DNA of 35,022 nt, taken from the UHGV virus genome UHGV-0182056; one strand, written 5' to 3'. This document shows positions 125-34,024 of this stretch, one piece after another. The first letter of the stretch is position 1; each line of letters opens with the position of its first letter. Both the position numbers and the translations under genes were made by a program. The notes below the pieces were generated by a model, which saw only the letters and a program-made list of their open reading frames with translations, had not been told where the DNA came from and made no database searches. The DNA is from a virus.

Positions 125-200
125 GGCCCCTTAGCTCAGTGGTTAGAGCAGGCGACTCATAATCGCTTGGTCGCTGGTTCAAGTCCAGCAGGGGCCACCA
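125..200 (+). tRNA. ileX: tRNA with CAT anticodon; sequence looks like enterobacterial tRNA-Ile2 (lysidine-modified CAU, ileX/ileY type); intact gene used as the prophage attachment site
   Basis: 76 nt with 7-bp acceptor stem GGCCCCT/AGGGGCC, D-arm AGCTCAGTGGTTAGAGC, anticodon loop CTCATAA, T-arm GGTTCAAGTCC and 3' CCA. Ile2 rather than Met is from recall of the E. coli gene and the yqjH neighbour, not from the anticodon. Confidence 0.8.
154..200 (+). repeat. attL core: 3' 47 bp of the tRNA, exactly repeated at 33978-34024
   Basis: Exact 47/47 direct repeat read from the sequence (GACTCATAATCGCTTGGTCGCTGGTTCAAGTCCAGCAGGGGCCACCA). Confidence 0.85.
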
Positions 201-227
201 AATTTAGCAATAAAATCAAATAATTAA

Positions 228-252
228 GCCACTCGATCGAGTGGCTTTTTTG
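228..252 (+). terminator. Rho-independent terminator downstream of the tRNA, supplied by the phage side of attL
   Basis: Hairpin GCCACTCGATCGAGTGGC followed by TTTTTTG. Confidence 0.6.
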
Positions 253-268
253 TTTCTGGTACTTCGAT

Positions 269-290
269 TGGCAGCAAAATGGCAGCAGAA
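269..290 (+). repeat. Two tandem 11-bp repeats (TGGCAGCAAAA, TGGCAGCAGAA); candidate integrase arm-type binding sites at the attL side
   Basis: Tandem repeat seen directly; the same 11-mer recurs in tandem near attR (33855-33887). Confidence 0.45.
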
Positions 291-336
291 TTTAGAAAGT
301 TCCTAAGAAAAAACCCGCAATAACGGGTCAATTTCT

Positions 337-552
337 TTAAAAATTCATGTGTCCCTGCCCCCATGTCGATGGATGTGGAGGGGCAATATCAATTAAATTT
401 GGAGTAACGATGTAACGTACAACCGTCTCATGAGTAACAAAAGTAGCGCCACAATTTATGTTTTGGCATTGGCAATAACGCTCCTTCGTCTGATCAGATA
501 CTCGAAAACTACTTCTTGTATGTGCCGCGTGTCCGCACTTCGGGCAATTCAT
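337..552 (-). CDS. ogr: Ogr-like zinc-finger late-gene transcription activator (P2 Ogr / 186 B family)
   Basis: Track ORF 337..600; likely start at the internal Met giving MNCPKCGHAAHTRSS...KERYCQCQNINCGATF, a C-x2-C...C-x4-C pattern that resembles P2 Ogr as I recall it. Confidence 0.8.
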   Translation of the reverse strand: MNCPKCGHAAHTRSSFRVSDQTKERYCQCQNINCGATFVTHETVVRYIVTPNLIDIAPPHPSTWGQGHMNF

Positions 553-623
553 CATATCTGCATCACTCCCCACAATTTTTTCAATCACATAATGATACAA
601 GATACATTCATTTTGTGAACAAA

Positions 624-1772
624 TTATTCCATTTCGAAATCATCAATCCTCACTTCAAGCTCCAGACTGGTCGTAAAACCGTTATCCGGGCTGACGGTAT
701 GTGTCAGAGTCGTAATGGTCCATTCCGCATCATCTATCGGCTGTTTAAAGCCACTGACTTTCACTGGCATTTCCGTGTAGAGATCTGCCCGCCCTTCCGC
801 CAGTTGTAGCGAGAATGACGCAACGCCGCGTTGCAGGCGTTCCCACTGCATTTTCGCCGCTCGCTCGGCGTTGCTCCGGTTGGCATAAGTACGATTAAGT
901 ACCAGCACATTTTCATCCGTACCCACCAGGTAATCGCCCTGCTTCGCTTCCGGCTCTTTCTTCTGCTTCTTAGTCCTGCGCTTACGCTTCACCGTGGTGC
1001 TTTCTTTCTTCGCGGGTTCGCGGGTATGCAACCAGCTGGCAATTACGCCCGTGTAGGCACCGCGATCAGCCAGGGTAAATCGGTGACTGTCGCCGTCCTT
1101 GCGTGTGATAGTGATCACCGGCAGAGGTTTACCGCTGGCGCTTTTGCCCTGTCCCTGCCGGATGAATAACAGATTGCCATTTTTCACCGACGCAATAGCA
1201 CCGTACTGGCGCGCCAGCCGCATCAAAAAACTGGCGTCACTCTCATTGGTCTGGTCTATGTGATCCACGGGCTTATCCGAGAGGTCTTTACCCAGAGCCA
1301 TCTTCAGCTTGTGACGCGCGGCTATTTCCTTCACCACTTCCCCAACTGTGGTCTTGTGCCACGATTTTTCACGGCGGGTATTCAGCGTTTCCCGAAAATC
1401 AGCACTTCGCGCCCGGATAGTCAGGCGGTCCGGTGCGCCAGTGTGTTCAATCTCGTCCACCGTGAATGCCCCTTTCGGGAAAAGCGGCTGCCCCTTCCAG
1501 CCCAGCGCCAGCGTAATGACCGCACCACGGCGCGGCAGCACGATTTTTCCGTCAGCGTCGTCCAGCTCCAGATCAAGCTGGTCCGCTTCAAAGCCCCGGT
1601 TATCCGTCAGCGTAAGCCCCATCAGGCGGTTGTCCAGCACAGTGGTGATATCCCTGCCTTCAATACTGATGCTGAATGCCGGAGAATTGTTGCCTTTGTT
1701 AAGCAGTTCAGAGCTGAAATTCACGACAGCAGCCCTCCCACCGTTTTCGTTTGAGCGACAGGGTGAACTCAA
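624..1772 (-). CDS. D: Tail protein gpD (late control D)
   Basis: 382-aa ORF at the P2 position after gpU; resembles P2 D-family proteins. Confidence 0.8.
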   Translation of the reverse strand: MSSPCRSNENGGRAAVVNFSSELLNKGNNSPAFSISIEGRDITTVLDNRLMGLTLTDNRGFEADQLDLELDDADGKIVLPRRGAVITLALGWKGQPLFPKGAFTVDEIEHTGAPDRLTIRARSADFRETLNTRREKSWHKTTVGEVVKEIAARHKLKMALGKDLSDKPVDHIDQTNESDASFLMRLARQYGAIASVKNGNLLFIRQGQGKSASGKPLPVITITRKDGDSHRFTLADRGAYTGVIASWLHTREPAKKESTTVKRKRRTKKQKKEPEAKQGDYLVGTDENVLVLNRTYANRSNAERAAKMQWERLQRGVASFSLQLAEGRADLYTEMPVKVSGFKQPIDDAEWTITTLTHTVSPDNGFTTSLELEVRIDDFEME

Positions 1773-2112
1773 TCCGGCGCGGCATACCGTCGCGGAAAAA
1801 CTCCGTTTTAGTCTGATTCAGTCCCTCAATCACATACATGCCGTAAATCGTGCCGCTGCCTTCAATCAGAGGCCATGCTTTCCCCTGTTCTGCCATCTGC
1901 TCCAGTGCCAGCAACGACAGCCTGCCGCCTGTTATCTCCGGCATAAGAACACCAGAAAGCGTCAGCATGTCGTTGTCCGGTCCCAGAAACTGCGTGGACG
2001 GACGACGATTTACCCGGCTGTTAGCCGCATGTCGCCAGCTACGCTGATACTGCAGTTCCTGATACGGCACGGTGCGCAGCATAAACACGTACAATCCCAG
2101 CACCATCATCAT
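1708..2112 (-). CDS. U: Tail protein gpU
   Basis: 134 aa; N-terminus MMMVLGLYVFM...LTGG...AWPL resembles P2 gpU; lies between T and D. Confidence 0.8.
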   Translation of the reverse strand: MMMVLGLYVFMLRTVPYQELQYQRSWRHAANSRVNRRPSTQFLGPDNDMLTLSGVLMPEITGGRLSLLALEQMAEQGKAWPLIEGSGTIYGMYVIEGLNQTKTEFFRDGMPRRIEFTLSLKRKRWEGCCREFQL

Positions 2113-5100
2113 GCGTCGTATCCCCCCTGATCGCTGTAGTTACTCCTGGCTTTTGCCTTCAGCCTGCGTTCACGTTCATCAAGCTGGCGGGCCACCTCCC
2201 GCGCAATATCCTGCGCACTTTGTCCTGGTTGCGTCTGGATGATGATCTGCGTCGGTGCCTCAATCCGGTAAACGGGCGTCACAGTGGCTGCGCGATTAAT
2301 CATCGCTTCACCGCCTTTCGTGGGAAGTGCCAAAGGATGTAACGGCGGAAGCTCTGCAGGCGCAGCAGCAACGCCCATCATTCCGGCAACAACGGCAGCC
2401 AGTGCAGCTGTATTTCTCCGGCTGGTCACATTTGCCGGACCGTTGACAATTTCAGGCCCGTTTTCACCGACAATACCGAACTGCCCGCGCGGGATATACC
2501 CCCCACTGTCATACATCCCCGCAAAGCCATATCCCCATGACGGAAAGCCACCTGATGGCATCATCACTTTACCGTCTGTATTCACCGTCGCAGGTTGCTG
2601 ACGCGTCACGCTTTCCGGCAGTTTCGCCTTTGCTGCCTCTTTACTGACAATGCCGAGTTTCTCCAGCAACCAGGAAACACCGGATTTCAGGGAGTCCAGC
2701 GGATGCATGACCATATTCAGCCCTTCCGCCAGTGCCTCCCCGAATCGTCGCCCCATTGTCGCTGCGCTCTGCAGTTCGGCAGAGGTCGACTTAACGGGCG
2801 TCAGCAGATCAGTAAACCAGCCCCACAACGCCTGCACTTTGTCGCCAATCCACTGAAACACAGGCTTAAGTGGTTCGAATGCTGCACTGATGGGACCTGC
2901 CGCCGCTTTGAATCCTTCCACCACGCCACCGAGAAATGCGGTGATGGGTTGCCAGTATTTCCAGACAACCAGCGCCACGCCCGCCAGTGCAGTAACCACA
3001 AGACCTATCGGACTGAGCAGAGCACCTAACAGACCAGATATGGCATACAGGGCAACGCGCAGCATCGCCAGCGGGCCGGATGCGAGCACACGCAGCACCG
3101 AGCCTGCGGCAGCCAGCCCACCGCGTAGTGCTGCCAGTGGATTCATAAACATCACAGCAACAGCACGTAAACCGGATAATCCAGACCGCAAAAGTGCAAC
3201 CGGCGCACCTGCTACAGTTTTCAGGACATTCCCCGTCAGTGATACCGTGCGACGCAAAGACGACAACGGAGCAGTAAGTAAACCCGCTGCGTTGCCCGAT
3301 GAAGCAAGCCCGCGTCGCAGCAGTGCCAGTGGTGCGCCAGCCAGCCAGGACAACGTGCTGCTGGTTCGAGTTACTGCTGCCGTAACGGAAGGTAACGTTT
3401 TGATACCCAGCACAGAGAATCCCAGACGGATCACTGCCAGCGGCCCCAGCACTGCAGCCAGCGCCACCGCTAAGGTGCCGAGGCCTACGGTAACCGCAGC
3501 CACAACAGCCACTACTTTCATCAGTGTGCCTGTCAGTTCCGGGTTAGCTTCCACCCAGCGGCGCAACGCCCCCGTGACGCTTTTCACCGTGTACAGAATA
3601 TCCATCAGCGGCTGGCGCAGCGTTTCGCCCAGGCTGCTGAAGGTGTTCTGCGCTCCGGTTTTGACCAGCAACCACTGAGCAGAAAGTGAGTCTTTGTTGA
3701 TGTCGGATTCTTTCTGCATCGAACCGAGCGCATCATTGCCCGCTGTCAGTTTTAGCTGGCGCTGTAGTTCCGGCAGGTTGTTTGCCAGTTTCGCCGCGTC
3801 ATCGCCAAACTCTTTACCAAACAACATGGTCATGGCAGACAGACGCTTGTCCTGCGGCAGTGCGTTTACCTTCTCCAGTACACGCTGGATGGTTCCCATC
3901 GCATCCTTCGTCATCTGCTTTTCAATCACTTCAGGATTGAGTTTCAGCAGATTCATCCCTTCAAAGAAACTCTTGCTTTGCATGGTGGCAATGGACAATT
4001 CACGCACCATCGCGTTTGCTGCACTGGCTGCAACCTCCGGCGCAGCGCCCAGTGTCAGAAAGGTGGAACCCAGTGCTGCCGCTTTACGATAATCCAGACG
4101 GTCAGCCACACCGCCCAGACGTTGCATCACATCAATGATGTCCGCCCCTTTCGACATGGCGTTATCATCCAGATAGTTCAGCGCATCGCCGAGCTGTTCA
4201 ATATTGCGGGTAGGTATTTTGTAGAGCTGGGCGATTTTCCCCAGACTTTCTGACAGTTCATCCGCTGGCAGCTCAAAGGCTGTTGCCGCCTTTGCTGCCG
4301 TACTGGCGAAGGCCAGCAGGTCACGTTTCTGGTCTTCCCAGCTGTCGTCAGGGTTTGCCACGTTCATGCGCGCACCACCTTCAACCAGTGCAGCGAAGTC
4401 CACCGCACCGTTTTCCATCGGCAACTGTTCGCTGGCAGCCTTGATGGCATCCTGCATTTCGTAAAAACGCGCAGTGCGGTTGCCATTATCGTCACGCAGA
4501 CCATTGACCTGCTTTGCCACACCTTTCATGGCATCTTCCATGCTGGTATAGCTTTTTACCGCCGCCATCACTGGCGCGCCCATTGCCAGCCCTGCAGCCG
4601 TGGTGGTGGCTCCGGCTCCTGCGATACGATCGCGCACTTCAAGCCGTCTTGAGTATTGTTCTCTGGCAGCGTTCATCCGTGCCTGTTGTTCACCCAGACG
4701 TTTAAGTGCTTTTTGCTGGCCCTCCAGTGCCTGCCTTGTTTCTTCAGCATTTTTCTTAAGTTCTCGCTGGGCACTACTGAGTTGCCTGGTATCAATCCCT
4801 GATTCTTTAAGTGCCTGACGTTGTCTCTGGACCGCCCCCAACAAGCCGTTATAGGTCTGCTGAAGTTCCTGTACTCGTGTTTTGGCCTGACTGAATAACT
4901 TTGCCTGCGCGGCGGTTGGCCTGTTAGTGGCAGCAAATTGTGTGGCGAGTTTTGCCGCCTCTTCGCGGGCTGCGTTCAGGTTGTTGGCTGTTATGGCTAG
5001 TTGCGAGCGCGTCTTGCGAAACTCATCAATTCTGCCAGCCTGCTTATTCAGTTCTTTGAGGCTGTTTCTGGTATTCTGAATTGCGCCAGCCAGCTCTTTC

Positions 5101-5186
5101 GAACTGGCCTGTGCAGCACGGAATGGGCGGGTGAGTTTGTCAACCGCATTAAGAATGACCTGCAGGCGCAGGTTGTTATCACTCAT
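2109..5186 (-). CDS. T: Tail tape measure protein gpT
   Basis: 1025-aa Ala/Gly-rich protein with N-terminal coiled-coil and hydrophobic repeats, immediately after the E/E' chaperone gene. Confidence 0.85.
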   Translation of the reverse strand: MSDNNLRLQVILNAVDKLTRPFRAAQASSKELAGAIQNTRNSLKELNKQAGRIDEFRKTRSQLAITANNLNAAREEAAKLATQFAATNRPTAAQAKLFSQAKTRVQELQQTYNGLLGAVQRQRQALKESGIDTRQLSSAQRELKKNAEETRQALEGQQKALKRLGEQQARMNAAREQYSRRLEVRDRIAGAGATTTAAGLAMGAPVMAAVKSYTSMEDAMKGVAKQVNGLRDDNGNRTARFYEMQDAIKAASEQLPMENGAVDFAALVEGGARMNVANPDDSWEDQKRDLLAFASTAAKAATAFELPADELSESLGKIAQLYKIPTRNIEQLGDALNYLDDNAMSKGADIIDVMQRLGGVADRLDYRKAAALGSTFLTLGAAPEVAASAANAMVRELSIATMQSKSFFEGMNLLKLNPEVIEKQMTKDAMGTIQRVLEKVNALPQDKRLSAMTMLFGKEFGDDAAKLANNLPELQRQLKLTAGNDALGSMQKESDINKDSLSAQWLLVKTGAQNTFSSLGETLRQPLMDILYTVKSVTGALRRWVEANPELTGTLMKVVAVVAAVTVGLGTLAVALAAVLGPLAVIRLGFSVLGIKTLPSVTAAVTRTSSTLSWLAGAPLALLRRGLASSGNAAGLLTAPLSSLRRTVSLTGNVLKTVAGAPVALLRSGLSGLRAVAVMFMNPLAALRGGLAAAGSVLRVLASGPLAMLRVALYAISGLLGALLSPIGLVVTALAGVALVVWKYWQPITAFLGGVVEGFKAAAGPISAAFEPLKPVFQWIGDKVQALWGWFTDLLTPVKSTSAELQSAATMGRRFGEALAEGLNMVMHPLDSLKSGVSWLLEKLGIVSKEAAKAKLPESVTRQQPATVNTDGKVMMPSGGFPSWGYGFAGMYDSGGYIPRGQFGIVGENGPEIVNGPANVTSRRNTAALAAVVAGMMGVAAAPAELPPLHPLALPTKGGEAMINRAATVTPVYRIEAPTQIIIQTQPGQSAQDIAREVARQLDERERRLKAKARSNYSDQGGYDA

Positions 5187-6194: not shown

Positions 6195-7367
6195 TTACGC
6201 GCTGACCTGGCTGGCGAAATTCACCAGGTACTGATCGGTGATGCGCTGACGCAACATCAGGTTTTCAAGTGGCGGCACTGGCGTGTAGTCGTAGTCGATG
6301 GTGAGTTTTCCGGCTTTCAGAGTATCTTTGTCGTTCACCGACTCATCCAGCCAGCAATCACCACCAATGAGATAGCCCTGACTGACCAGGCTGCGCATTT
6401 TGGCGCGGATACCTTCGATAATGTCGCGGGCCAACGACGGGTTCAGCGGTTTGTCCACCGCCCACATATGCGCTTCTGCCATTGTGTCCATAAGTACCTG
6501 CGCCGTGCGGGTGTAGTTTTCGAAGGCAAAGAGCGGGTCATCACTCAGGCAGCGGGAACCCCAGAAGCGGAAACCGTCTTTGCGGATAAGGGTGGTGACG
6601 TCGCTCTGGTTCAGCAGTCCCGCATCTGTTGCCGTGTCCTGCAGATCCCAGAACACATCAGCAGAAATTCCGGTGACACCGTTCACGCCCACGTTGGACA
6701 GGCTTTTGTGCCATCCGGTCTGCTCATCAATTTTGGCGCGCAGACCAAGCGCACGGGCGGTGGCATATGCCGTTGCTTCGGCATTCAGTACCGTGTCCCA
6801 GCCAGTAAAGTCAGGCCAGATCAGCATCCCTTCGCGCTGGCTGAAGTTTTCACGGTAAGTGATCGCCTCCTGCACTGTCTTGCAGCCATACGCTGACAGG
6901 TAAGCAAACCCACGTAGGCTTTGCGCCACGCTCAGCAACTCAGTCGCAACGGCTTTGTTATCATGGCCTGGCACGCCGAGAATGCGCGGTTTAACGCCGA
7001 GCTGTGACTGGGCAGATAACAGAGCTTTCATGCCTGTTTTTTTACCTTCAGCAGTCACTGCGCCGATGATATTGGTCGTGGTTTCTTCTTCCGTTTCACC
7101 CTGCGGCACACGCACAACAACGGTCACGGGTTTTGCCTGGTCAGCGATGGCATCCAGCGAACGGGCCAGCGTGCCGGACTCACCCGCTTTACCGCTGGCA
7201 GTCAGCACATCAGTGATCAGCACGGGTTTATTAAGAGGAAACATTTTTGCATCGGCATCATCGCCCGTGCAGACCATACCCACGATGGCGGTGCTCACCG
7301 TGGTAATGGATCGGGTGCCTTCGTTGACTTCAACAACGCGCACCCCGTGGTGGTAATCCTGAGCCAT
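6195..7367 (-). CDS. FI: Contractile tail sheath protein gpFI
   Basis: 390 aa, sheath-like sequence, followed by the tube gene. Confidence 0.85.
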
Positions 7368-7509: not shown

Positions 7510-8076
7510 TCAGGGGGATTCATTACTCTTATTTGCCGGAAATTTTCTATAAATTGTGGAAACACCCACATCAAAAATCAGTGCAATACGCTGTCTTGAT
7601 TCTCCGGCCTCGAGTAAGCGTCCAATCTGTGCCCACTGTTCGGTAGTCAACTTAGGACGGCGTCCACCTACTCTGCCTTTGGCGCGAGCTGCAGCAAGCC
7701 CCGCCCTGGTACGTTCAACTATCAGTTCGCGTTCCATTTCAGCCAGGGCACCCATGACATGAAAAAAGAAACGGCCCATTGGGGTACTGGTATCAATACT
7801 GTCAGTCAGGCTTCGGAAATTCACACCTCGCTGGCGCAACTCTTCTATCAACGTAACAAGATGCCGCATACTGCGCCCCAACCTGTCCAGCTTCCAGACA
7901 ACCAGCGTGTCTCCTGCCGATAGTGTCCTGAGCAGCTTTTTCAGCCCCGGTCTGTCGGACTTGGTGCCACTGATTTTATCCTCAAAAATCCGCTCACATC
8001 CCGCACAGTTCAGTGCATTGCGTTGCAAATCGGTGTTCTGGTCATTTGTTGACACGCGTACATAGCCAATAAGCAT
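7510..8076 (-). CDS. pin: Serine-recombinase DNA invertase of the Pin/Gin/Cin/Hin family
   Basis: MLIGYVRVSTNDQNTDLQRNAL...LVVWKLDRLGRSM...FFHVMGALAEMEREL closely resembles e14 Pin / Mu Gin as I recall them; gene abuts the left crossover site. Confidence 0.85.
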   Translation of the reverse strand: MLIGYVRVSTNDQNTDLQRNALNCAGCERIFEDKISGTKSDRPGLKKLLRTLSAGDTLVVWKLDRLGRSMRHLVTLIEELRQRGVNFRSLTDSIDTSTPMGRFFFHVMGALAEMERELIVERTRAGLAAARAKGRVGGRRPKLTTEQWAQIGRLLEAGESRQRIALIFDVGVSTIYRKFPANKSNESP

Positions 8077-8131
8077 GATCATCCCCCTGAATAAAAACCG
8101 GAGATGATGCCAGTTAGCCGTTATCTCTGCA

Positions 8132-8157
8132 TTTTCATAAACGTTGGTTTGGGAGAA
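8132..8157. other. Left recombination site (gix/pix-like) of the invertible tail-fibre segment
   Basis: TTTTCATAAACGTTGGTTTGGGAGAA; its outer 15 bp are a perfect inverted repeat of 10037-10051 and the whole resembles the 26-bp gix site as I recall it. Confidence 0.65.
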
Positions 8158-8496
8158 GCGGCCAAATTGCCTGCGATTAGTGGCTCTTTATCATCATCTG
8201 GCTGGATAAAAATCCCTGTTATAGAGGGGAAGTCTTTTATTATCCAATGGGGAAGAATCGGACCTTCTGATAGTAAAACTGGTGTTGCAACAGGAAGTTA
8301 TCCTATTGCTTTTCCAAATTCTGCATTTATGGCATTTATTGCTGAAAAAACCGCAGTATCCACAGGCCCAATAGGTATTAATTCCTGGGGAGTGTCCGAA
8401 CTAACAAAAACAGAATTAAAGGCCATTTGTGCTGCAAGGACTATATCAACTTCAGCCGCAACTGAAACAGGTGATTTTCTGGTACTGGGATATTGA
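8144..8496 (+). CDS. Silent alternative tail-fibre C-terminal cassette (no own start; would be fused to the constant fibre region after inversion)
   Basis: Open frame runs through the left crossover site and encodes ...VGLGEAAKLPAISGS..., sharing the GLGE junction with the active fibre; AT-rich. Confidence 0.6.
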
Positions 8497-8966
8497 GCTT
8501 CCATAAGGATTATAAAATGTCGAGCATAATATACTACAGCTCTATAAATAATGCATTTTACCCTGAGCATTTGAAACAAGAATATATTAAATCTAATTCT
8601 TTTCCAGCAGATGCAAAACCCGTTAAATATTCTGTTTTCGAAGAATTTGCACTTAAACCAGCACCAGAAGGAAAATATAGATGCGTTGGTGAAGATGGAA
8701 TGCCATCATGGGCAGATATTCCACCACCAACACATGAGGAACAGATTGCCGCAGCCGAATTGAAAAAGCAGCAATTGATTAACCTGGTCAACGAATACAT
8801 GAACAGTAAACAATGGCCCGGTAAAGCGGCTATTGGTCGTCTGAAAGGTGAGGAACTGGCGCAATATAATTTGTGGCTGGATTATCTGGACGCACTGGAA
8901 CTGGTTGATACCTCCAGTGCTCCAGATATTGAATGGCCTACGCCTCCAGCAGTTCAGGCCAGATGA
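8493..8966 (+). CDS. Alternative tail-fibre assembly chaperone (Tfa')
   Basis: C-terminus LWLDYLDALELVDTSSAPDIEWP parallels the C-terminus of the active Tfa (LDYIDAVTATDTSTAPDVIWP). Confidence 0.7.
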   Translation: MSFHKDYKMSSIIYYSSINNAFYPEHLKQEYIKSNSFPADAKPVKYSVFEEFALKPAPEGKYRCVGEDGMPSWADIPPPTHEEQIAAAELKKQQLINLVNEYMNSKQWPGKAAIGRLKGEELAQYNLWLDYLDALELVDTSSAPDIEWPTPPAVQAR

Positions 8967-9540
8967 CATCCGGCGCGGTGCTGGTATCTGTTGCCGTCAC
9001 CGCGTCAATGTAATCCAGCACGGCGTTAAGTCGGGTGTTTTCTGTCTGCGTCAGCTTCCGCACGGCCTGTAATTTCAGTTGAATCAGACTGATAGAAGCC
9101 ATTGCAGCATCAATCAGCGACTGGCGCTGTGCTTCTGCCGCTTCTACTGCGGCGCTATGCTGTGCCTCAGTATCGGTCACCCATTTCTCACCATCCCATT
9201 TATCGTATGGCGTTAACGGTGCGAGAGTGGTTGTTTTTTCGGGATAGTCGCCTGGTGCTGTGATTTCTTTGGCATCTCCCGTTTCGGTGTTATAGACAAT
9301 TTCACCGCGATGGTCTGGCACATATTCCCATGAGTTAAAATCTGCTGAGCGGCAGATAGCATAACCAGCTTTATGTGTAACTGGCGCATCTAAACAAGAA
9401 CATGCCGGGATACCGACGCCAACAGCAAGATATTCAGTTGATGTGGAAATATATTCCCGCGTTTCACCATCATAATTATAAACGGTAATATCTCCCGCCT
9501 TTGTGGCGATGAGTTCCTTATTTAATATAGCTTTATCCAT
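8938..9540 (-). CDS. G: Tail-fibre assembly chaperone (gpG-like), currently expressed orientation
   Basis: 200 aa; N-terminal ...ITVYNYDGETREY... typical of this family; start overlaps the fibre stop. Confidence 0.8.
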   Translation of the reverse strand: MDKAILNKELIATKAGDITVYNYDGETREYISTSTEYLAVGVGIPACSCLDAPVTHKAGYAICRSADFNSWEYVPDHRGEIVYNTETGDAKEITAPGDYPEKTTTLAPLTPYDKWDGEKWVTDTEAQHSAAVEAAEAQRQSLIDAAMASISLIQLKLQAVRKLTQTENTRLNAVLDYIDAVTATDTSTAPDVIWPELLEA

Positions 9541-23180: not shown

Positions 23181-23220
23181 CCCGCTTTATGTAGTGGTTT
23201 TCATGCGCCTGCATGACATA

Positions 23221-23247: not shown

Positions 23248-23338
23248 CTCAGCTAAAACGATCCTCAAACGATCATGCGGATTCATGCAGCATAGACATG
23301 CACAATCTCCAAAGCGGGCATCGAGACTTTTTGGAAAC

Positions 23339-24576: not shown

Positions 24577-24765
24577 TCAGCTGATGACATCCATTGAGCG
24601 GTTGTATTCGTGGCTTCTGATTTTTGCCATGAGTTCATCAGTCAATTCAGAAACCCACTGCAGGGCCAGCCCCTTCTCTTCATCACTACACTCACTAGCC
24701 GCTACAAGCTTAAGAAAAAAATCAATGCGCTGGAGCTTCAAAGACTCCAAAAAATAGTCCTGCAT
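24577..24765 (-). CDS. Small protein (62 aa), first gene of the LexA-box-controlled operon; candidate Tum-like antirepressor (speculative)
   Basis: Start MQDYFLESLK preceded by AGGAGG; LexA box 45-60 bp upstream; 10-bp gap to the DinI-like gene. Confidence 0.45.
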   Translation of the reverse strand: MQDYFLESLKLQRIDFFLKLVAASECSDEEKGLALQWVSELTDELMAKIRSHEYNRSMDVIS

Positions 24766-24807: not shown

Positions 24808-24826
24808 ACTGTTTATATTTACAGTA
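24808..24826. promoter_or_regulatory. LexA (SOS) box
   Basis: ACTGTTTATATTTACAGTA fits CTGT-N8-ACAG with an AT-rich spacer; sits just upstream of the small-ORF/DinI-like operon. Confidence 0.7.
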
Positions 24827-24918: not shown

Positions 24919-27333
24919 TTAATACAGGTTCCGCCACTTATCATCTTCCTGCAAACGCTGGTTCCGATAGAAGACACGCAGGCCTGCTCCTGACGGAATA
25001 CTGCCGCCGCGAAGGAGTAAATCGACCTCTTTCTCGCTGCCATCAAATCCTCTGGACTTCAGTTCATAGACGAGCTGCTGGCGTTGATGGTCTGTAATTC
25101 GCTGTTTGTAGTCTCTACGCCGTTTCGGTTTCACCAGGCGTAACCTTGCAGCCAGTTCCCGGCGCTCTTTTTTGTTCATACTGTGCAGGTAATCGTGCAA
25201 TCCCTTGTCATCCATGCGGGTAATGTCCGTTCTGGTGTCCCCATCAGCTGATTTATCTTTCCCCTGTTTGTTCAAATTTTCAGCAAGGGGACAGTTATTG
25301 CCACGAGTCCAAGGGGCGCAAGCGCCCTGGTCGGCTGCCACCTCCTGAACGTCAACGGCCTTACGAACCATTTTCCACTTCACTGCATGAGTGCAGATCT
25401 TGCCCTCTGCAATGGGTGACCAGATGCCATAAATACGAATACCGTGATCGCCATAGGCGGTTGGCTCTTCGTTGATTTCATAAGCGGTTCTGATGAGTTG
25501 ATATTTGCGGGGAACCAGTACGCCGCCCTGATTCATGATGTAGGTGGCAAAACAACCAGCATCAGCAGCAGCCAGGATGGCATCAAGGCGCGGGTTATCC
25601 AGTACCGGCGCACCTGCTTTTTTGTCACCCTGTTGCCTTGCCGCCTGACCAGCCAGCAATCGCAGTTCACGGTAAGCCTGACGCCCCGGAATGCCAAAGA
25701 AGCGGAATTGCTGAACACGATGCAGAGACGCCCAGGCATTAACGTATTCAGCGTTATCACGCAGGGATTTACCCGTTTCCTTACTGATCTCGCCAGCCAG
25801 ACCACGCCCGTCAATATTCTTACTGATATATTTCGCAATGTAGCTTGTCGGCGTTCCTTTGCGCGGGTTTATCAGCTCAGACTTAAAGCGTGGCCCCGTG
25901 TTATTGCCCAGCTCCTCGCGGTCTTCACGGATGGCAAACTTACGCAACAATGCAGTAATGGCGCGGCGGTCTTTTTTGCGCATGAAACACAACAGGTGCC
26001 AGTGAACTGTGCCGTCATGATGCGGCTCAGCCACCCGCACGCCATACCAGCGCAACCCGGCTTTGTGCATAGCCTTACGAAATGCAGCAAACATGCCGAC
26101 CAGATAATCGCTGCTTTGTCTTACTGTCGCGTTGGTCCAGGTCGGGTTTGGCCTGCCGTTATTTAGCGTGGAATGGAAACGTGACGGACAGGTGATGGTG
26201 TAGAAAACGGCGCAGTCACCACGCATTTCCGCGATAAGCTCCAGGCCTTTAACACAGGCCATCATCTCGTTGCGGCGATGCGCCGGGTTGCTGCTGCTGG
26301 CGTTTACCACATCCTCCATGTTCAGCGTGTCGCCGTCTTCGTTCACCAGTTCATGAGAACGGAAAAACTCCAGCGACTTACGGCGCTGCTCACGTTTATG
26401 CATCACGGCTTCATAGCTGACATAGGGAGATGCTTTTTTGCTGACCAGGCAGACAGCACGCAACTGCTCTTCCCGCCATTCGCAACGCATCTTCCATAAT
26501 TTCCGATACCACCAGTCGGCGCAAAGCATACGCGCCAGCGAACCCGGAATGAGTTCATAAGGCACAGGTTTGCGGCGGTTTCTTTTCCGGCGGAGTTGCT
26601 CAAACGCAGGCGGTATGACATCCAGTCGCAGGGTTTCTGCAGCCACCTTTTCCCATGTCTTGCGGATTTCTTCTGGCTTAACATCATCGGAGGCGTACAA
26701 ATCACCACAAGCGGCATCAAGACACATGCTCATATGCGCAGCGACAAGGGTGGACAGGCGTTTCACCTGATCCTGACTCATTTCAGGCAGGATCAGCAGG
26801 CCGTCCAGCCCTTCATGGCTTGCCATAAAGCGAAAAGAAGTGGATAGCTGACTGTCGCGTACATGCTCCAGTCGTTCCAGACATGGCTTAATCGTCTCAC
26901 GCAAATAGCGGGAATAAGCCTTTGGTCTGCCCAGGCTGCTGAAGTATTCAATACGTTGCATCAGCGGCTTGCTGATATGGGAAGGCTGAGCGTTAACGTC
27001 CGCCAGAATGACCATGTCTGGATTAAAACGCTGCTGCTCATGCGCCAGCTTTGCCCGGCTAATGAGCTTATCCTGCTCCATTTCGCGCTGGACAGGATCA
27101 CGGGATTCATTAAAGAAATAACGCTCCCAGACCTGATCACTCAGTGCCTCGCGGCGCAGTTGTTCCTGCTCGTTATCGGCAGCGTACAGAGTGATCAGGT
27201 TTGAAAGCGCAGAAACCGGCGCAACTTCCGCCGGGTCCAGATAAGGGTTAATGGCCTTTTTCGGGATGTTCCATGAGAATGCTGCGGCGACCTCGTTAAA
27301 GCCGCTGCAGTTGTTCATATCAGCATGGCTCAT
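24919..27333 (-). CDS. A: Replication initiation protein gpA (rolling-circle nickase)
   Basis: 804 aa; size and position fit P2/186 A. Confidence 0.85.
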
Positions 27334-28187
27334 GCACGTACTCCGTACACGGCAGAACTATCCACGCCACGCGAATAATCAAATCCCACCCAGCAGCGCG
27401 GCCCGGAAACAGCAATGATTTCTGTTGCTGATTTACCCTCGCCAGCTGCCACACCGATGCTGCGTTTTGCTTTGATGTAGTGGTGAGTGAAATTGCGATA
27501 CAGAGAACGAATCAGGGATGTGTCACTGTTAGAAACAATGACCGGATGTCCTTCTGATGACCGATGTTCAAGAATGGATGCCAGGTGATACTGGTCATCT
27601 TCAGTGAAACCATCAGTGTGATAGCCGGAAAACGTACCGTCATAAGGCGGATCGCAATACACCACATCCCCCGCCTTCAACATCGCCAGCGTTTCATCAA
27701 AGCTGGCGCAGATAAACGTTGCTCGCTGGGTTTTTTCTGCAAATGCGCGAATTTCTTTTTCAGGGAAATACGGATTTTTATAATTACCGTAGGGAATGTT
27801 GAAATGCCCGCTCTTGTTATAGCGACATAAACCACGGTAACCGTGACGATTGAGATACAGGAAATATACTGCTTTCATGAAATCAGTAATTTCAGTTGAG
27901 TAATTAAACTCCTGCCTTATGTTGTAATAAGCCAGCTCACTGTTTGCTTCCTCAAATAAAACACTGGCACGAGATATAAACGCCTCACAATCAGCGGCAA
28001 TCTTTTTATAGAGGTTGATTAAATCAGGATTAATATCCGCAACCAGATAGCTGGGATAATCCGTCTCCATTATCACAGCACAGGAACCAGCGAAAGGTTC
28101 AACCAGTCGCGGGCCAGCAGGAAGATGTTTTTTCAGTTCGGACATTATGGCGGTTTTATTTCCCGCCCATTTCAGGATGGTGCTCAT
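27330..28187 (-). CDS. Dam-like N6-adenine DNA methyltransferase
   Basis: Likely start at [11 protein letters not shown]; motifs LKWAGNK, EPFAGS and DPPY resemble E. coli Dam; start overlaps the upstream stop (ATGA). Confidence 0.8.
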
Positions 28188-28411
28188 ACAGCACCTCCGT
28201 TGTAATGTTTGCCTTTCAGCTCTGCGATTTCCTGACAGGTAATGCAAAGCTGCACACCCGGAATGGCACGGCGGCGTGCTGGCGGAATTGGCGCTTCACA
28301 CTCAATGCAAAGCACGCGGGACACGCCCGGTGTTTTGGCACGGGCAGCACGGATATGGCGCTGGCGTTCTTCTTCAACGCGCTGCTGTACGAGATCCATT
28401 GCATCAGCCAT
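28184..28411 (-). CDS. TraR/DksA-family C4 zinc-finger protein
   Basis: 75 aa; CIECEAPIP...CITC. Confidence 0.7.
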   Translation of the reverse strand: MADAMDLVQQRVEEERQRHIRAARAKTPGVSRVLCIECEAPIPPARRRAIPGVQLCITCQEIAELKGKHYNGGAV

Positions 28412-29053: not shown

Positions 29054-29247
29054 TTGTTCCCCCGTTTTTTCGTTGATAGTTCTGCCAGCAATTCATCTTG
29101 TGAACGGCACGGATGCCAGCGTTTACCATCCTTACCCATTATCCAGCCGTGACCGTAGTGCATTGCCGGACTTTGTTTTACCAGCAGCGATGCAAATGAT
29201 GGTTCTTTCGTCAGCATAAGCACCTCACAGCAAACCGAATGAAGCAC
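29017..29247 (-). CDS. Early-region small protein directly downstream of cII (position of 186 fil)
   Basis: 76-aa track ORF; start uncertain. Confidence 0.35.
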   Translation of the reverse strand: MLHSVCCEVLMLTKEPSFASLLVKQSPAMHYGHGWIMGKDGKRWHPCRSQDELLAELSTKKRGNKWLLKALRRLFH

Positions 29248-29734
29248 CGAGGCCAGTCACGGTATCAACTGCACTCGCCATCGCAGGGTTAGCCTGTAAA
29301 CGGGCCTGCAATGACACAGCAGCCAGCGCCATCAGTCGTGTTACAGAGTTAATGCTGCTGATAGCATCACGACGACCTGCACTGGTTTTTACATCGCCAG
29401 ATACCGCACCTGCAGCAACACGCCCGATCTCTGCGGTTGCGCTCATGACGTAATGTGGCAGTTTCTCTTTTGCCACCTCATTAATCGGTACACATGGCAG
29501 ACAATGAATCTGTGCCAGAAAACCATCTACCAGCGTTGAATCTTCAGTCAGATCGGTAAGCAGCCAGATTTCTGACGGCGTGAGCTGATGTGATTGTTCC
29601 GGGTTAAGCTTGTTACGCAGCGTCTGGACGTTCATTCCCGCGCGTTCTGCCAGCTTTGCCATGTTGTGACGCAGTGCGAAAGCCCGGCAGGCTTCATCAA
29701 AATGCGGATGTTTGGAAACACGATAATCAAACAT
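29225..29734 (-). CDS. cII: CII-like lysogeny-establishment activator (phage 186 type)
   Basis: 169 aa; MFDYRVSKHPHFDEACRAFALRHNMAKLAERAGMNVQTLRNKLNPEQ... resembles 186 CII as I recall it. Confidence 0.8.
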   Translation of the reverse strand: MFDYRVSKHPHFDEACRAFALRHNMAKLAERAGMNVQTLRNKLNPEQSHQLTPSEIWLLTDLTEDSTLVDGFLAQIHCLPCVPINEVAKEKLPHYVMSATAEIGRVAAGAVSGDVKTSAGRRDAISSINSVTRLMALAAVSLQARLQANPAMASAVDTVTGLGASFGLL

Positions 29735-29768: not shown

Positions 29769-30005
29769 TCAGGCTTGCATTGCGACTTCGCAGCCTTGGG
29801 CCGCTTCCATCGTCAACGCGAACATGTTGATTTCGATAAGGCTGTTAACTCCGGCTTTTTTCCTGATGGGAAGGCGGTTTTCCCGGATCATTTGGCGGGC
29901 ATAGCTAGGCTTGTAACCAGTACGACGACAGAACTCATCCAGTGTGATGAATGGCTCAGATATCACAAGGTTGATGCTGGGGCGCATTGAAAAATTACTT
30001 TTCAT
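29769..30005 (-). CDS. apl: Apl/Cox-like excisionase and lytic-switch regulator
   Basis: 78 aa, first gene of the lytic operon, divergent from cI. Confidence 0.7.
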   Translation of the reverse strand: MKSNFSMRPSINLVISEPFITLDEFCRRTGYKPSYARQMIRENRLPIRKKAGVNSLIEINMFALTMEAAQGCEVAMQA

Positions 30006-30106
30006 GATGCACTATTCCTCAGTTTGTGTTTAAAAACTTCACTATTCGGATGTATTCGCACATATACCGAACACCACAAAAGCGATAATAGGATCACAAT
30101 TGAGAT

Positions 30107-30721
30107 ATGTCAAACACAAAAGAAAACCCTAATGAGATTTCAACTTTCATTTTTCCATCTCAAAGTGGGGGAAGAGAGGCCATAACACGCATTCTTCAGG
30201 CTTATGGATTCAGCACAAGACAAGCTCTATGTGATCATCTCGGCGTCTCTCAAAGCACAATGGCTAACCGCTGGATGCGTGACACTTTCCCACATGACTG
30301 GCTTATAGCCTGCCATCTGGACACAGGTGTACCCTTGCTTTGGCTAACTACTGGTAAGGGCACTCCAAAAACCACGCCAAATGAAGATCACGGATTAACT
30401 TTGCAATTAAGCGAAATCACAAATGGGATTCTAAACAACACAACCTTGATTCATTATGACCTACACCTAATTCCTCAAAACACCACAGATCCGTTTCTTG
30501 TCAAATTTGAATCGACGACGTATCTCGTCAGTGAATATAAAGGCGAGATCAATGACGGCACCTGGCTGATTGAGATAGATGGTTTTGCGAGCATCAGACA
30601 GGTTTACCGTCTGCCTGGCGGGCGAGTTCGTGTTGAAAACGGCCCTGCATCATTTGAGTGTGCGGCCTCTGATGTAAAAGTTTTAGGGAAAGTGGCAAGC
30701 AAAATAGATAACGTGGACTGA
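30107..30721 (+). CDS. cI: CI immunity repressor (186 type)
   Basis: 204 aa, divergent from apl; N-terminal HTH-like region (STRQALCDHLGVSQSTMANRW). Confidence 0.75.
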   Translation: MSNTKENPNEISTFIFPSQSGGREAITRILQAYGFSTRQALCDHLGVSQSTMANRWMRDTFPHDWLIACHLDTGVPLLWLTTGKGTPKTTPNEDHGLTLQLSEITNGILNNTTLIHYDLHLIPQNTTDPFLVKFESTTYLVSEYKGEINDGTWLIEIDGFASIRQVYRLPGGRVRVENGPASFECAASDVKVLGKVASKIDNVD

Positions 30722-30745: not shown

Positions 30746-31294
30746 ATGAGAGTTTTAGTCACAGGCGTATTAATTTTGTCATCATTTGCTGCAATTGCAG
30801 CACCTGAACAATTCAAAAACATTAATGACTTGATGGAAAACTATAACGATTATCCAACTTATACCGTAGACGGTAAGGATTTTCCATCTTTCAAAATTTT
30901 ATCTGAAAAGCCTTTACACATCCAAATCTCGCCGCGCACTTTATCAGGGAGTTCAACGAAAGATATTAAGTACGAATCAGACAGGGCAGCCATTTACGCA
31001 GCATATCGTACTTTGTATCAAACGCCTGCAGACAGGGTTAAAGTCACAGTATTACCTATTTCAATTACCCCCCAGCCTCGGAAGGTAGAGTATATGACGG
31101 AATATAAATATGATTTTAGCATTACAAAAAAGCAGGCAATAAATTTACTCCGCAGACACAGCAATATATTGAATGAAGACCAGTTAATGTCCGCCAATGG
31201 TGAATGGAGCAAAGCATTTGAAAAGTGCTGTTACCTTGAAGAAGGTAAGCCCGGTTTATCAATATTTGCTAAAGAGTTAATCACGCAAAGGTAA
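30746..31294 (+). CDS. Moron: secreted/periplasmic protein of unknown function, apparently in the lysogenic cI-int operon
   Basis: 182 aa with N-terminal signal peptide MRVLVTGVLILSSFAAIAAP; AT-rich; stop 5 bp before the int start. Confidence 0.55.
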   Translation: MRVLVTGVLILSSFAAIAAPEQFKNINDLMENYNDYPTYTVDGKDFPSFKILSEKPLHIQISPRTLSGSSTKDIKYESDRAAIYAAYRTLYQTPADRVKVTVLPISITPQPRKVEYMTEYKYDFSITKKQAINLLRRHSNILNEDQLMSANGEWSKAFEKCCYLEEGKPGLSIFAKELITQR

Positions 31295-31299: not shown

Positions 31300-32313
31300 G
31301 TGGCAGTAACAAAACTCGCTAATGGTAAGTGGCAGGCTCAGGTCTTCCCCAACGGTAGGGATGGGCGGCGTGTACGCCGCCTATTTGCAACTAAAGGGGA
31401 AGCTCTGGCATTTGAGCGATATATAAAAGACCAAACAATTGATAAGCCTTGGCTTGGTGAAAAAAAAGATAAGCGACGTGTTATTGACCTTGTTGATACG
31501 TGGTTTAATGCACACGGTATTACGTTGTCTGATGGTCAGAAAAGAAAAGATACGATGGAGTTTGCTTGCATAGCAATGGGTAACCCTCTTGCGAGTGAGT
31601 TTAATGCGAAATTGTTTGCCAGCTATCGTGAGCAACGTTTAAGCGGAAAAATTACTCGTTCCAACAGAGTAAAAGCAGTCACACCACGAACTGTGAATTT
31701 AGAACTGGCTTACTTCCGCGCAATGTTTAATGAATTGAAGCGTCTGGATGATTGGATGGCTCCTAATCCACTCGAAAATATTCGTGAATTCAAAATTGAT
31801 GAAGCGGAGTTGTCTTGGTTGACAGTAGAAGAGGTAAAAGTGCTTCTTGCTGAGTGCGAAAAAAGCAGAGCTAAAGACCTGTCGATGATCGTACAAATTT
31901 GTCTGGCCACTGGTGCTCGTTGGGGTGAGGCAGAATCCCTGTCTGGCATGCAAATCAGTCCCGGGAAGATCACCTTCACCAAAACAAAGGGAAAAAAGAA
32001 CAGAACTGTTCCAATAAGTGATGAACTATACGAAATGCTTCCACGCATCAGAACATCAAAACCTCTGTTTAAGCCATGCTACTCCGCATTCAGAACTGCA
32101 ATAAAAAGGGCCAAAATTGAATTACCTGATGGCCAGCTTTCGCATGTTCTTCGACACACTTTCGCAAGCCACTTTATGATGGGGGGGGGCAACATTCTTG
32201 TACTCCAACGCATCCTTGGACATACAGATATTAAGGTAACGATGCGCTACGCACATTTTTCCCCTGACCATCTGACAGAAGCAGTTGAGTTAAATCCTTT
32301 AAATCATCTTTAA
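31300..32313 (+). CDS. int: Tyrosine integrase (P2/186 Int family)
   Basis: 337 aa; C-terminal HVLRHTFASH...LGHTDIKVTMRYAHF catalytic region; GTG start. Confidence 0.9.
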   Translation: MAVTKLANGKWQAQVFPNGRDGRRVRRLFATKGEALAFERYIKDQTIDKPWLGEKKDKRRVIDLVDTWFNAHGITLSDGQKRKDTMEFACIAMGNPLASEFNAKLFASYREQRLSGKITRSNRVKAVTPRTVNLELAYFRAMFNELKRLDDWMAPNPLENIREFKIDEAELSWLTVEEVKVLLAECEKSRAKDLSMIVQICLATGARWGEAESLSGMQISPGKITFTKTKGKKNRTVPISDELYEMLPRIRTSKPLFKPCYSAFRTAIKRAKIELPDGQLSHVLRHTFASHFMMGGGNILVLQRILGHTDIKVTMRYAHFSPDHLTEAVELNPLNHL

Positions 32314-32346
32314 CTAAAAAAAGGGCGATTTCAACGCCCTTTTTTA
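32314..32346. terminator. Bidirectional terminator between int and the convergent cargo gene
   Basis: A-run, hairpin AGGGCG-ATTTCAA-CGCCCT, T-run. Confidence 0.6.
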
Positions 32347-32350
32347 TCAA

Positions 32351-33703
32351 TCAATCAAAAAAATCCTTTTTGAAATCGCTACTACTAGATAATCCAGGTC
32401 TTATTTTTTCAATAACATCTTGACAAGCCGCAGGTTGATCATCAAGTGCCTTGGACGCTTTTTCCTTTATTTTTGGTATATTATTAAACCTACCTTTCAT
32501 CATTCCATCCGGCCCATACGCACCCCAAATACCTGCAGCGCAGATATTCACTATCAATTCAAAACATTCAAGATCATTCATTAATAAAGCAATATCTTTA
32601 TCATAAACGCTAGCACTTCTAGCGAATGAGTTCGCCTCATCAAATGTTGAAGATCCTGCTTTTGAAAAAATATTACTAATTAATTTAGCTCTAGCCCATT
32701 CTTTATGCTTCACAACATTCATCAATACAGGGCTGAATTTATACTTATTCAACACATCATCAATATTATTCATAAAAAACTTATCTAATACAGCCTTGTC
32801 CAATGCCAGAAGACTTCTTACTATTTGAACAGGATGTCTCAAATATGTATGTTGATCTGCTGTACTTGTAGACGAAATTGTACTTTCAAACATTTTATTA
32901 ATTCTTAAATAAAATATATCATCTAAATCCTTTATCAAATTTGAATTTGTTGAAATTGACTCCATTAAAAACTTAGTTTTATTTTCATCTGAACTGCACT
33001 CCTCTAAAACCTGTTTTTTTATTTGTTGAAGAACTTGATCATTCAAAGGATTACTCGACAGTCCAAGAAGATATCTCTTAGCATTAACTTGTATCTGTTC
33101 GTTCGGATTATCAAGAGATTGGAGTAGTTTTTTTAATAGATAGGAGTAACCATCATGATGAAGATTCTTTACACCTTCATTTACTACTGTAGCATGATCT
33201 TGTATGTTTGTTGTAGGAAATAAATATGCATTTGTTAATTTTGATATAATTTCATCTGCAACTTGTGTTGTAGAAAGAATTGGTTTTGAAAGGAATCTGC
33301 CAATTGTTTCTGAAAAGACATATCTTGCTTCTTCGGCTGTTGGTTTGTGACCGGAAGGATGCGCTGCTTTGTTTCTAAGAGTTTTCAATACGGTTAGAAA
33401 ATCAGCATCTATATCAGTAATTATTTTTTCAGATTTTAAGCGATTCAGCAAATCATTCTCAAAAACCTTTTGCTCTTCCCTTTTTTTATTTATCTCTGCA
33501 AATATGGCCCTTGCAACTTTATTTGTCGATGCCATTCCATTTAGTTTTTTTAATAAATCTTCAAATATAGCGATAAAAGATAAAACAACACATGCGCGAT
33601 GAGCACCTGTCATATAGCAAGTTAGTGCTTCGCGCATATACTCCTTAAGCTCTACATCAACAATATCACTTATAAGTTCTTCCATGTCCCTCAAACTTGA
33701 CAT
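32351..33703 (-). CDS. Accessory protein: N-terminal HEPN-like (DUF4145-like) domain with an Rx4H motif plus a large C-terminal helical domain; candidate single-gene abortive-infection/defence protein
   Basis: 450 aa, strongly AT-rich, between int and attR; ...LTVLKTLRNKAAHPSGH... gives R-x4-H; RBS GAGGGG upstream. Confidence 0.5.
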   Translation of the reverse strand: MSSLRDMEELISDIVDVELKEYMREALTCYMTGAHRACVVLSFIAIFEDLLKKLNGMASTNKVARAIFAEINKKREEQKVFENDLLNRLKSEKIITDIDADFLTVLKTLRNKAAHPSGHKPTAEEARYVFSETIGRFLSKPILSTTQVADEIISKLTNAYLFPTTNIQDHATVVNEGVKNLHHDGYSYLLKKLLQSLDNPNEQIQVNAKRYLLGLSSNPLNDQVLQQIKKQVLEECSSDENKTKFLMESISTNSNLIKDLDDIFYLRINKMFESTISSTSTADQHTYLRHPVQIVRSLLALDKAVLDKFFMNNIDDVLNKYKFSPVLMNVVKHKEWARAKLISNIFSKAGSSTFDEANSFARSASVYDKDIALLMNDLECFELIVNICAAGIWGAYGPDGMMKGRFNNIPKIKEKASKALDDQPAACQDVIEKIRPGLSSSSDFKKDFFD

Positions 33704-33742
33704 ACTAACCCCTCATTTGGTTCTTTAAAAATTCCATCATAC

Positions 33743-33760
33743 CATACAAATGTTTGTATG
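33743..33760. promoter_or_regulatory. 8-2-8 perfect dyad (CATACAAA TG TTTGTATG) in the promoter region of the 450-aa cargo gene; candidate operator
   Basis: Perfect inverted repeat about 40 bp upstream of the start codon. Confidence 0.35.
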
Positions 33761-33854
33761 CTTTATTGGCAAAGTTTATTGTAACTTTAATGTCAAGCCA
33801 AATATGAGCATATCATCAGGAGGATGTTTTTCATCTCATGTAAGCGTTAGACGT

Positions 33855-33887
33855 AGGTAGCAAAATGGCAGCAAAATGGCAGCAAAA
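33855..33887 (+). repeat. Three tandem 11-bp repeats (GGTAGCAAAA TGGCAGCAAAA TGGCAGCAAAA); candidate integrase arm-type sites at the attR side
   Basis: Same 11-mer as at 269-290, same orientation. Confidence 0.45.
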
Positions 33888-33977
33888 CTATCCACTATGC
33901 TTTCATATTCCCCACTATTCGACGGCGCAATGTGTTGAAATTTAAGTAACTAATTGTTTTTCAATACTTAAGATTGG

Positions 33978-34024
33978 GACTCATAATCGCTTGGTCGCTG
34001 GTTCAAGTCCAGCAGGGGCCACCA
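33978..34024 (+). repeat. attR core: truncated 3' tRNA copy (47 bp), identical to 154-200
   Basis: Exact repeat; upstream tRNA sequence is absent, so not a second tRNA gene. Confidence 0.85.

Follow-up and report, generated by a model that had tools for sequence, protein, structure and literature searches.

The 35,022-nucleotide stretch UHGV-0182056, analysed at its full length and called the window below, carries a complete-looking P2/186-like (Peduoviridae) prophage. We found that this is very probably a 186-like element placed by its own tyrosine integrase (Int) in the tRNA gene ileX, with tandem 11-bp repeats on both sides of the attachment core as the predicted arm-type sites of Int and a Cox/Apl-family protein as the candidate for excision. 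This reading is carried by the repeats themselves, by an empty site that can be rebuilt from the flanks, by homology and positional equivalence to the attachment site (attP) of phage 186, and by conservation of the repeats in relatives.

The only tRNA gene that ARAGORN detected in the window lies at 125–200 (+) and has the anticodon CAT, for which the program called Met. That identity gave way to tRNA-Ile2 (ileX) once the RefSeq annotation and the genomic context were considered: RefSeq labels the identical gene, positioned between mug and nfeF, as tRNA-Ile, and the order in K-12 is rpoD-mug-tRNA-Ile-nfeF-nfeR. We take the tRNA-Ile at mug/nfeF to be ileX, i.e. tRNA-Ile2 with a lysidine-modified CAU anticodon, which tRNA finders label ‘Met’. 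The copy at attL is a hybrid, with host DNA forming its 5′ part and its final 47 bp lying inside the att repeat. This 47-bp identity block, the common core, runs from the anticodon stem to the CCA of the tRNA at 154–200 (+) and recurs exactly at 33978–34024 (+), where it represents the displaced tRNA 3′ part in attR. An exact repeat of this length cannot arise by chance in 35 kb, and the similarity runs on imperfectly to 57 nt (96%, 2 mismatches). Within each core, the anticodon-loop sequence CTCATAA (156–162 and 33980–33986, both +) corresponds to the crossover region predicted in 186.

When window positions 1–200 were joined to position 34025 onward, the result was an uninterrupted mug-ileX-nfeF locus, matched as a single piece at 100% identity, and this junction query found matches at a coverage of at least 80% in 4955 of 5426 complete E. 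coli genomes. Because the joined flanks equal the empty ileX-nfeF locus, the element ends inside the 47-bp repeats, giving a prophage of 33.8 kb between the repeats (154–34024). The boundaries put forward in the initial annotation are thus borne out by the exact repeat and the rebuilt site, and the comparison with an unoccupied copy of the same tRNA locus that it had proposed is provided by the majority of complete E. coli genomes. The full window is identical to E. coli PSS-07 (NZ_AP027673.1), and the module from int to attR is rare, occurring in 2 of the 5426 genomes.

Just past the core, phage positions 201–210 and host positions 34025–34034 are still alike (AATTTAGCAA vs GATATAGCAA), and therefore the phage copy of the tRNA reaches slightly beyond the CCA. 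A terminator scan identified a phage-supplied terminator at 226–257 (+), consisting of a hairpin (226–247) and a T-run, with homologous hairpins in 186 and other phages. This terminator takes the place of the native ileX terminator after the end of the tRNA. The native one, at 34033–34060 (+), lies in host DNA and is followed by nfeF (34078–34842, −).

The 11-mer TGGCAGCAAAA has three exact copies, at 269–279, 33866–33876 and 33877–33887, all on the + strand, and a near copy with one mismatch, TGGCAGCAGAA, follows at 280–290 (+). In a scan of the whole window, the exact copies fell only in the two att arms and in the same orientation. With up to one mismatch allowed there were six matches against 1.75 expected, a count reached by 0 of 100 shuffles. 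The P′ arm would accordingly comprise TGGCAGCAAAA and TGGCAGCAGAA in tandem (269–290, +) as candidate Int arm-type sites P′1 and P′2, an arrangement also present in attL of Klebsiella phage ST13-OXA48phi12.1, and the P arm two exact units of TGGCAGCAAAA (33866–33887, +), also found in relatives, as candidate sites P1 and P2. From the end of the core to the attL 11-mers there are 69 bp (269−200), and from 33887 to 33978 there are 90 bp. Two copies in attL and three in attR had been counted in the initial annotation. The two tandem units at 69 bp in attL stand, with the reservation that one of them carries a mismatch; in attR the two exact copies at about 90 bp stand, whereas the third, AGGTAGCAAAA at 33855–33865 (+), is degenerate, with two mismatches that destroy the family-invariant TGGC. 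This third copy is not kept in close relatives and adjoins the junction of a cargo insertion, and for these reasons it is probably not a functional site; we therefore counted two functional sites on the P arm.

The GenBank record of phage 186 (U32222) describes in its attP a truncated tRNA-Ile, the predicted crossover CTCATAA, two footprints of integration host factor (IHF), five Apl sites, and ‘predicted Int arm-type recognition sequences; consensus YAYCGCCAYTY; 3 sites to left of attP and 2 sites to right’. In window orientation, the 186 arm 11-mers on the left are GAATGGCGATA, AAGTGGCGGTA and GAAATGGCGAA, in which TGGC starts 115, 104 and 92 bp left of CTCATAA, and those on the right are GAGTGGCGATA and GAATGGCGGTG, at 114 and 125 bp. 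The corresponding TGGC starts of the window lie at 114 and 103 bp on the left side, with the degenerate copy at 125, and at 113 and 124 bp on the right side; the arm-site offsets of the two elements are thus equal to within 1 bp. Read in the phase of the 186 sites, the window unit is TGCTGCCATTT, which matches YAYCGCCAYTY at 9 of 11 positions including the invariant GCCA, and the attP cores agree at 46 of 47 bases. Nilsson et al. (2011) described the 186-type arm sites as direct repeats flanking the core, with the consensus tgccGCCActt and read by the N-terminal domain of Int, and they noted, too, prophages in ‘tRNA-Met’ whose common cores are long (PMC3448106).

We collected relatives of Int by scanning one genome per species, which gave 34 loci. 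Those at 83–97% identity came from Escherichia sp. (E1V33), Citrobacter, Enterobacter, an Erwiniaceae bacterium and Pseudescherichia, and in all of them an ileX-type core lies about 120 bp past the int stop codon and two tandem TGGCAGCA units directly follow int, in an alignment in which the surrounding bases diverge. The P-arm 11-mers are kept in loci L003, L004, L005, L006 and L031 and in Klebsiella and Kosakonia records, the Kosakonia record (Kc166BP) being a 6-kb early-region fragment with no P′ arm in it. The Klebsiella phage ST13-OXA48phi12.1 (Dagavirus, MK422453; Int 85% identical) has TGGCAGCA units on both arms. When the int-att module was compared by megablast with 50,697 phage records, no close relative came up beyond the tRNA core and one stretch of ST13-OXA48phi12.1, which is 77.5% identical and lies in the cII-cI region. 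The initial annotation had reasoned that binding sites should recur in the att regions of related phages, and the repeats are indeed there, kept while their flanks diverge. Its proposal that the 11-mers are candidate arm sites of Int gains support from this conservation and from the positional match to 186, and the tandem 11-mers TGGCAGCA(A/G)AA are accordingly best regarded as the predicted Int arm-type sites of this lineage.

Across phages the motif falls into classes. TGGCG(A/G)T is found on both arms in 186, BIS20, EtG and GCS667, TGGCAGCA on both arms in the window element and ST13-OXA48phi12.1, and TG(T/C)CCCCT on both arms in ESSI2_ev015. The class varies between phages, the tRNA core is common to all, and within a phage both arms belong to the same class (7 of the 7 examined), which is what a single arm-reading domain predicts. 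Among phages that share the tRNA core, the N-termini of Int differ in step with the arm class. A strict one-to-one code from N-terminal sequence to arm motif was considered and rejected, as 26 loci did not follow it cleanly, and for that reason we relied on the concordance of the arms within each phage. The Yersinia loci have another tRNA core and mostly a single TGGC copy after int.

The integrase itself (337 aa, 31300–32313, +) is full length, is 60% identical to 186 Int, and contains core-binding and catalytic domains (Pfam Int_N and Phage_integrase), so that the earlier description of an intact integrase holds. A sequence search of the PDB placed it closest to HP1 Int (1AIH, E=1e-87) and to the integrase chain 5C6K, which we take to be P2 Int; in this search residues 1–46 were covered by no solved structure, and the Pfam scan detected no arm-binding domain family. 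An AlphaFold2 model of residues 1–70, made from the single sequence, folds as three strands followed by a helix (predicted local distance difference test score 73.6). A three-stranded β-sheet with a helix is the arm-DNA-binding N-terminal fold expected of lambda-type heterobivalent integrases.

The presumed excisionase and switch repressor is a 78-aa protein of the Cox/Apl family, whose gene comes first in the early operon (29769–30005, −). Its profile match is to PHROG 575, ‘Cox-like excisionase and repressor’ (E=8e-23), which 186 Apl also hits (2.8e-9); BLASTP of the 78-aa protein against 186 Apl gave no similarity, so the link is by profile only. Hence, of the ‘intact Apl’ in the initial annotation, a full-length Cox/Apl-family gene remains and direct similarity to 186 Apl does not. 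A second set of phased repeats accompanies this gene. Three hexamers at exact 10-bp spacing, CTATGC, ATATTC and CTATTC, lie on the P arm (33895–33920, +) where 186 has its five Apl sites, and are candidate sites for this recombination directionality factor (RDF). The switch region between the apl-like gene and cI (30012–30067, +) holds CTATTC at 30012 and 30042, GTATTC at 30052 and ATATAC at 30062, candidate RDF operators that follow a 10-bp phase and are kept in L003, L004 and L006. The window has three exact copies of the octamer CACTATTC, at 30010 and 30040 in the apl-cI intergenic region and at 33913 on the P arm, with a one-mismatch copy at 33893. The pattern TATKC-N5-TATKC gave three matches against 0.22 expected (30043, 33896 and 33906), confined to the switch and the P arm. 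In 186, Apl binds phased direct repeats at attP and at the switch, and binding requires a minimum of three neighbouring operators (PMC7498355). The TATKC repeat common to switch and P arm is thus the likely candidate for the excisionase site. Sequences resembling IHF sites flank the core as well. On the P′ arm an exact consensus (AATCAAATAATTA, 214–226, +) lies where 186 has its P′ IHF footprint, and between the RDF sites and the core are two one-mismatch matches (33928–33940 and 33947–33959, both −) whose columns are conserved in the family alignment. These are consensus matches only, and the exact consensus has four matches in the window against 1.37 expected.

In the mechanism that we propose, the element's own tyrosine integrase would insert the phage into the 3′ part of the tRNA-Ile2 gene ileX. 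Since attP would bring with it a copy of the tRNA from anticodon stem to CCA together with its own terminator, integration would restore an intact tRNA at attL and leave the 47 bp so displaced at attR. Through its N-terminal domain Int would bind the 11-mers, two on the P arm (33866–33887) and two on the P′ arm (269–290), and Int at arm and core sites, with IHF bends at 214–226 and about 33928–33959, would assemble the intasome. For excision, the Cox/Apl-family protein (29769–30005) may occupy the three phased TATKC hexamers at 33895–33920 on the P arm and, like Apl in 186, it may also recognise this motif within the pR-pL switch. Sequence and homology are our grounds for inferring protein binding, the precise point of crossover and competence for excision.

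Between int and the P-arm sites lies the 1.5-kb cargo insertion mentioned above, so that int does not adjoin attR, in departure from the initial picture. It contains a gene for a 450-aa DUF4145 protein (32351–33703, −; Pfam), a PD-T7-3-like defence gene by PADLOC (PD-T7-3, E=2.9e-16), with a GC content of 32.5% against 51% for the prophage, and this gene is convergent with int. In close relatives the cargo gene is not at this position and the int stop codon adjoins the arm sites. A bidirectional terminator hairpin after the int stop (about 32316–32345) is apparent by eye and was not listed by the terminator scan. The int-att interval is a recognised minor hotspot for defence and cargo genes in P2-like phages (PMC13586616).

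Could the 11-mers serve another protein, or none? RDFs typically recognise direct repeats that follow one another at about one helical turn, and an 11-bp tandem spacing would fit (PMC7498355), so that the 11-mers might be sites of the Cox/Apl-family excisionase/repressor instead of Int. We consider this very improbable. RDFs of this family use the same motif at the pR-pL switch, and the TGGCAGCA 11-mer was not found there in the window scan, whereas TATKC, the other phased repeat, is present on the P arm and in the switch, also in relatives, which argues that the 11-mers are not RDF sites. Moreover, the 11-mers occupy both arms in positions homologous to the Int arm-type sites of 186 and not to its Apl sites, all five of which lie on the int-side arm, between the arm-type sites and the core. 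That the 11-mers are incidental tandem duplications produced by slippage, with no function, we find scarcely credible: they are short and A-rich, and their copy number ranges from 2 to 4 among relatives, but outside the two att arms there are no exact copies and those in the arms share one orientation, the 11-mers are kept across six genera while neighbouring bases have diverged, their offsets equal those of 186 to within 1 bp, and the same motif class appears on both arms in all seven phages. A role as CI operators was rejected on position, as the P′ copies (269–290) lie downstream of the B-gene terminator and not at a promoter. Several points do weigh against taking the 11-mers as arm sites of a 186-like Int. 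The third attR copy is degenerate, and TGCTGCCATTT, a variant motif, falls outside the strict IUPAC consensus of 186 at two of its 11 positions. The arm sites of 186 are themselves ‘predicted’ in the GenBank record, and footprinting of them was not found in the literature examined. The N-domain model of Int is from a single sequence and of moderate confidence only, and lambda Int was not among its top matches. Finally, covariation of Int N-terminus and arm motif is not clean over the 26 loci, and Yersinia locus L017 has a 186-like Int N-terminus beside TGGCAGCA repeats.

A further possibility accepts both the att sites and the 11-mers as genuine and holds that the prophage is fixed and no longer excises. 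This seems unlikely to us, if less so than the two preceding alternatives. In its favour, the cargo insertion parts int from the arm sites, and only 2 of 5426 complete E. coli genomes have the int-to-attR module. Induction may also differ from that of 186. A perfect LexA box (CTGTTTATATTTACAG, 24809–24824) overlaps a minus-strand sequence that looks like a promoter by eye, and downstream of it lie a 62-aa open reading frame (ORF; 24577–24765, −) and a separate 77-aa DinI-like gene (24333–24566, −). The product of the latter shares 43% identity with the C-terminal half of 186 Tum, and the 62-aa ORF showed no similarity to the N-terminal half of Tum, so that a Tum-like function appears to be split or only partly present. 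SOS induction of the prophage is plausible, though not assured. On the other hand, the two cores have the same sequence, the four conserved arm sites are undamaged, and int, the cox/apl-like gene, cI (30107–30721, +, a 186-type CI repressor with Pfam Phage_CI_repr and Phage_CI_C) and cII (29225–29734, −, by profile) are full length. Full-length profile matches were obtained for 8 of 8 genes scanned: D (624–1772, −), tape measure (2109–5186, −), sheath (6195–7367, −), fibre (9540–11099, −), capsid (17491–18549, −), terminase (19542–21308, +), portal (21305–22342, +) and replicase A (24919–27333, −). The late region is 96.5% identical to that of a phage record, Escherichia phage Cartapus. Int acts in trans, so the cargo need not matter, and it sits in a recognised P2-like hotspot (PMC13586616). 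We therefore keep to the reading in which a 186-like prophage was integrated by its own Int, with the 11-mers as predicted arm-type sites.

Genes were assigned by Pfam and PHROG profile matches. The first phage gene inside attL encodes an Ogr/Delta zinc-finger late activator homologous to 186 gene B (337–600, −; Pfam Ogr_Delta, E=3.6e-22), and its tB-like terminator (312–329, −) marks a module boundary at which Cartapus homology starts. The identity to Cartapus extends over 90% of the length, from about 332, and hence the att/int/immunity module is the mosaic partner of a known structural module. From the late-activator terminator onward, beyond a mosaic boundary at about 332, homology to Cartapus and other Peduoviridae is 91–96%, and the P′ arm (201–331) forms part of another lineage's int/att module.

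Several further features were observed. Between cI and int is a 182-aa ORF (30746–31294, +; GC 38%) with an N-terminal signal peptide and no match in Pfam, PHROG or PADLOC. It is presumably part of the lysogenic transcript and is possibly a lysogenic-conversion or exclusion protein; L003 and L004 have the same cI-int spacing, suggesting that the ORF is common to them. The interval between portal and replicase (22351–23950, −), at the position of the P2 old/tin hotspot, contains a 232-aa ORF with a weak match to PD-T7-4 (E=1.2e-6) and an assignment to PHROG 1305 ‘DNA binding protein’, and a 203-aa ORF in PHROG 26391, which has no assigned function. A DNA invertase gene (7510–8082, −) adjoins opposed ORFs for a fibre C-terminus (8104–8496, +) and fibre assembly (8493–8966, +), and 7510–8966 looks like an invertible host-range segment of the Gin/Cin type. 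The early operon also includes a DNA methyltransferase gene (27330–28247, −; PHROG 56, E=1.8e-121).

The variant arm motif raises a more tentative question of specificity. Nilsson et al. proposed Int positions 14 and 16, in their own alignment numbering, as discriminators of arm sites (PMC3448106). The window Int has Q14/F16 in its N-domain where 186 has E14/Y16, and together with the TGGCAGCA motif this might amount to a distinct arm-recognition specificity that could be orthogonal to 186-type elements on the same tRNA-Ile core, an idea that we hold as possible and somewhat doubtful. If true, two elements could share ileX/ileY or sit in tandem without cross-excision. In other genera, L005, L006 and L031 show tandem occupancy of the ileX-type site, with hybrid junctions of the form P(TGGCAGCA)-core-P′(TGGCGRT) at 5000–6500 in L005 and about 5000–5300 in L006 and L031; in L005 a second 186-type P arm and core follow 1.2 kb further on, so that a remnant element lies in tandem. 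These hybrid junctions suggest a hint of orthogonality at the level of the arms.

What the analysis contributes is boundaries at nucleotide level and a parts list for attP (core, four arm sites, candidate RDF and IHF sites, and terminators), useful for annotation, for the design of junction PCR and possibly, as one more variant of arm specificity, for integrase toolkits. It leaves the understanding of site-specific recombination as it was, as the attachment-site architecture is the standard one already described for 186 and P2, seen here in a lineage that targets ileX, is rare and has a variant arm motif.

The same attP logic is shared with P2 (Int arm sites tgTGGaCa, Cox and IHF) and lambda (Int, Xis and IHF), in which the N-terminal domain of a heterobivalent tyrosine integrase binds direct-repeat arm sites, IHF bends the DNA and an RDF occupies phased repeats on the P arm (PMC3448106, PMC7498355). 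The window element differs from both in arm motif and target site: P2 integrates between genes with a short core, and in sequence the window proteins are not close to lambda Int and Xis. Among its relatives, ST13-OXA48phi12.1 and the related prophages share the Int lineage, the ileX-type core, the TGGCAGCA arm repeats and the CACTAT/TATKC repeats of the P arm, but in them int directly adjoins the arm sites, with neither the DUF4145/PD-T7-3-like cargo nor the degenerate third copy, and the window differs in all three respects. The attP/Int/Apl module of 186 has been studied by Dodd, Reed, Egan and colleagues, and the resemblance to it is extensive. As in 186, the core comprises the 3′ part of tRNA-Ile2 from the anticodon loop onward and has tandem 11-bp repeats of the predicted arm type to either side, candidate IHF sites are located to its left and right, and the tRNA end is followed by a terminator that the phage carries. 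Candidate direct-repeat sites of the RDF likewise occupy the stretch from the P-arm sites to the core and recur within the pR-pL switch, the genes run in the order cII, apl-like, cI, int, att, B, D, and the identity of Int extends over its full length. The element is not phage 186 itself (Eganvirus ev186), as megablast of the window against 186 gave no match beyond the tRNA core. It occupies ileX, whereas the 186 site is annotated as ileY; its arm motif is TGGCAGCA instead of TGGCG(A/G)T, with two conserved P-arm copies instead of three; and its RDF lacks BLASTP similarity to Apl, with candidate TATKC operators in place of the TGGCAA-type repeats of 186. Unlike 186, it also has the added signal-peptide ORF between cI and int, the PD-T7-3-like gene where 186 has Orf69, and structural genes that are nearest to those of phage Cartapus.

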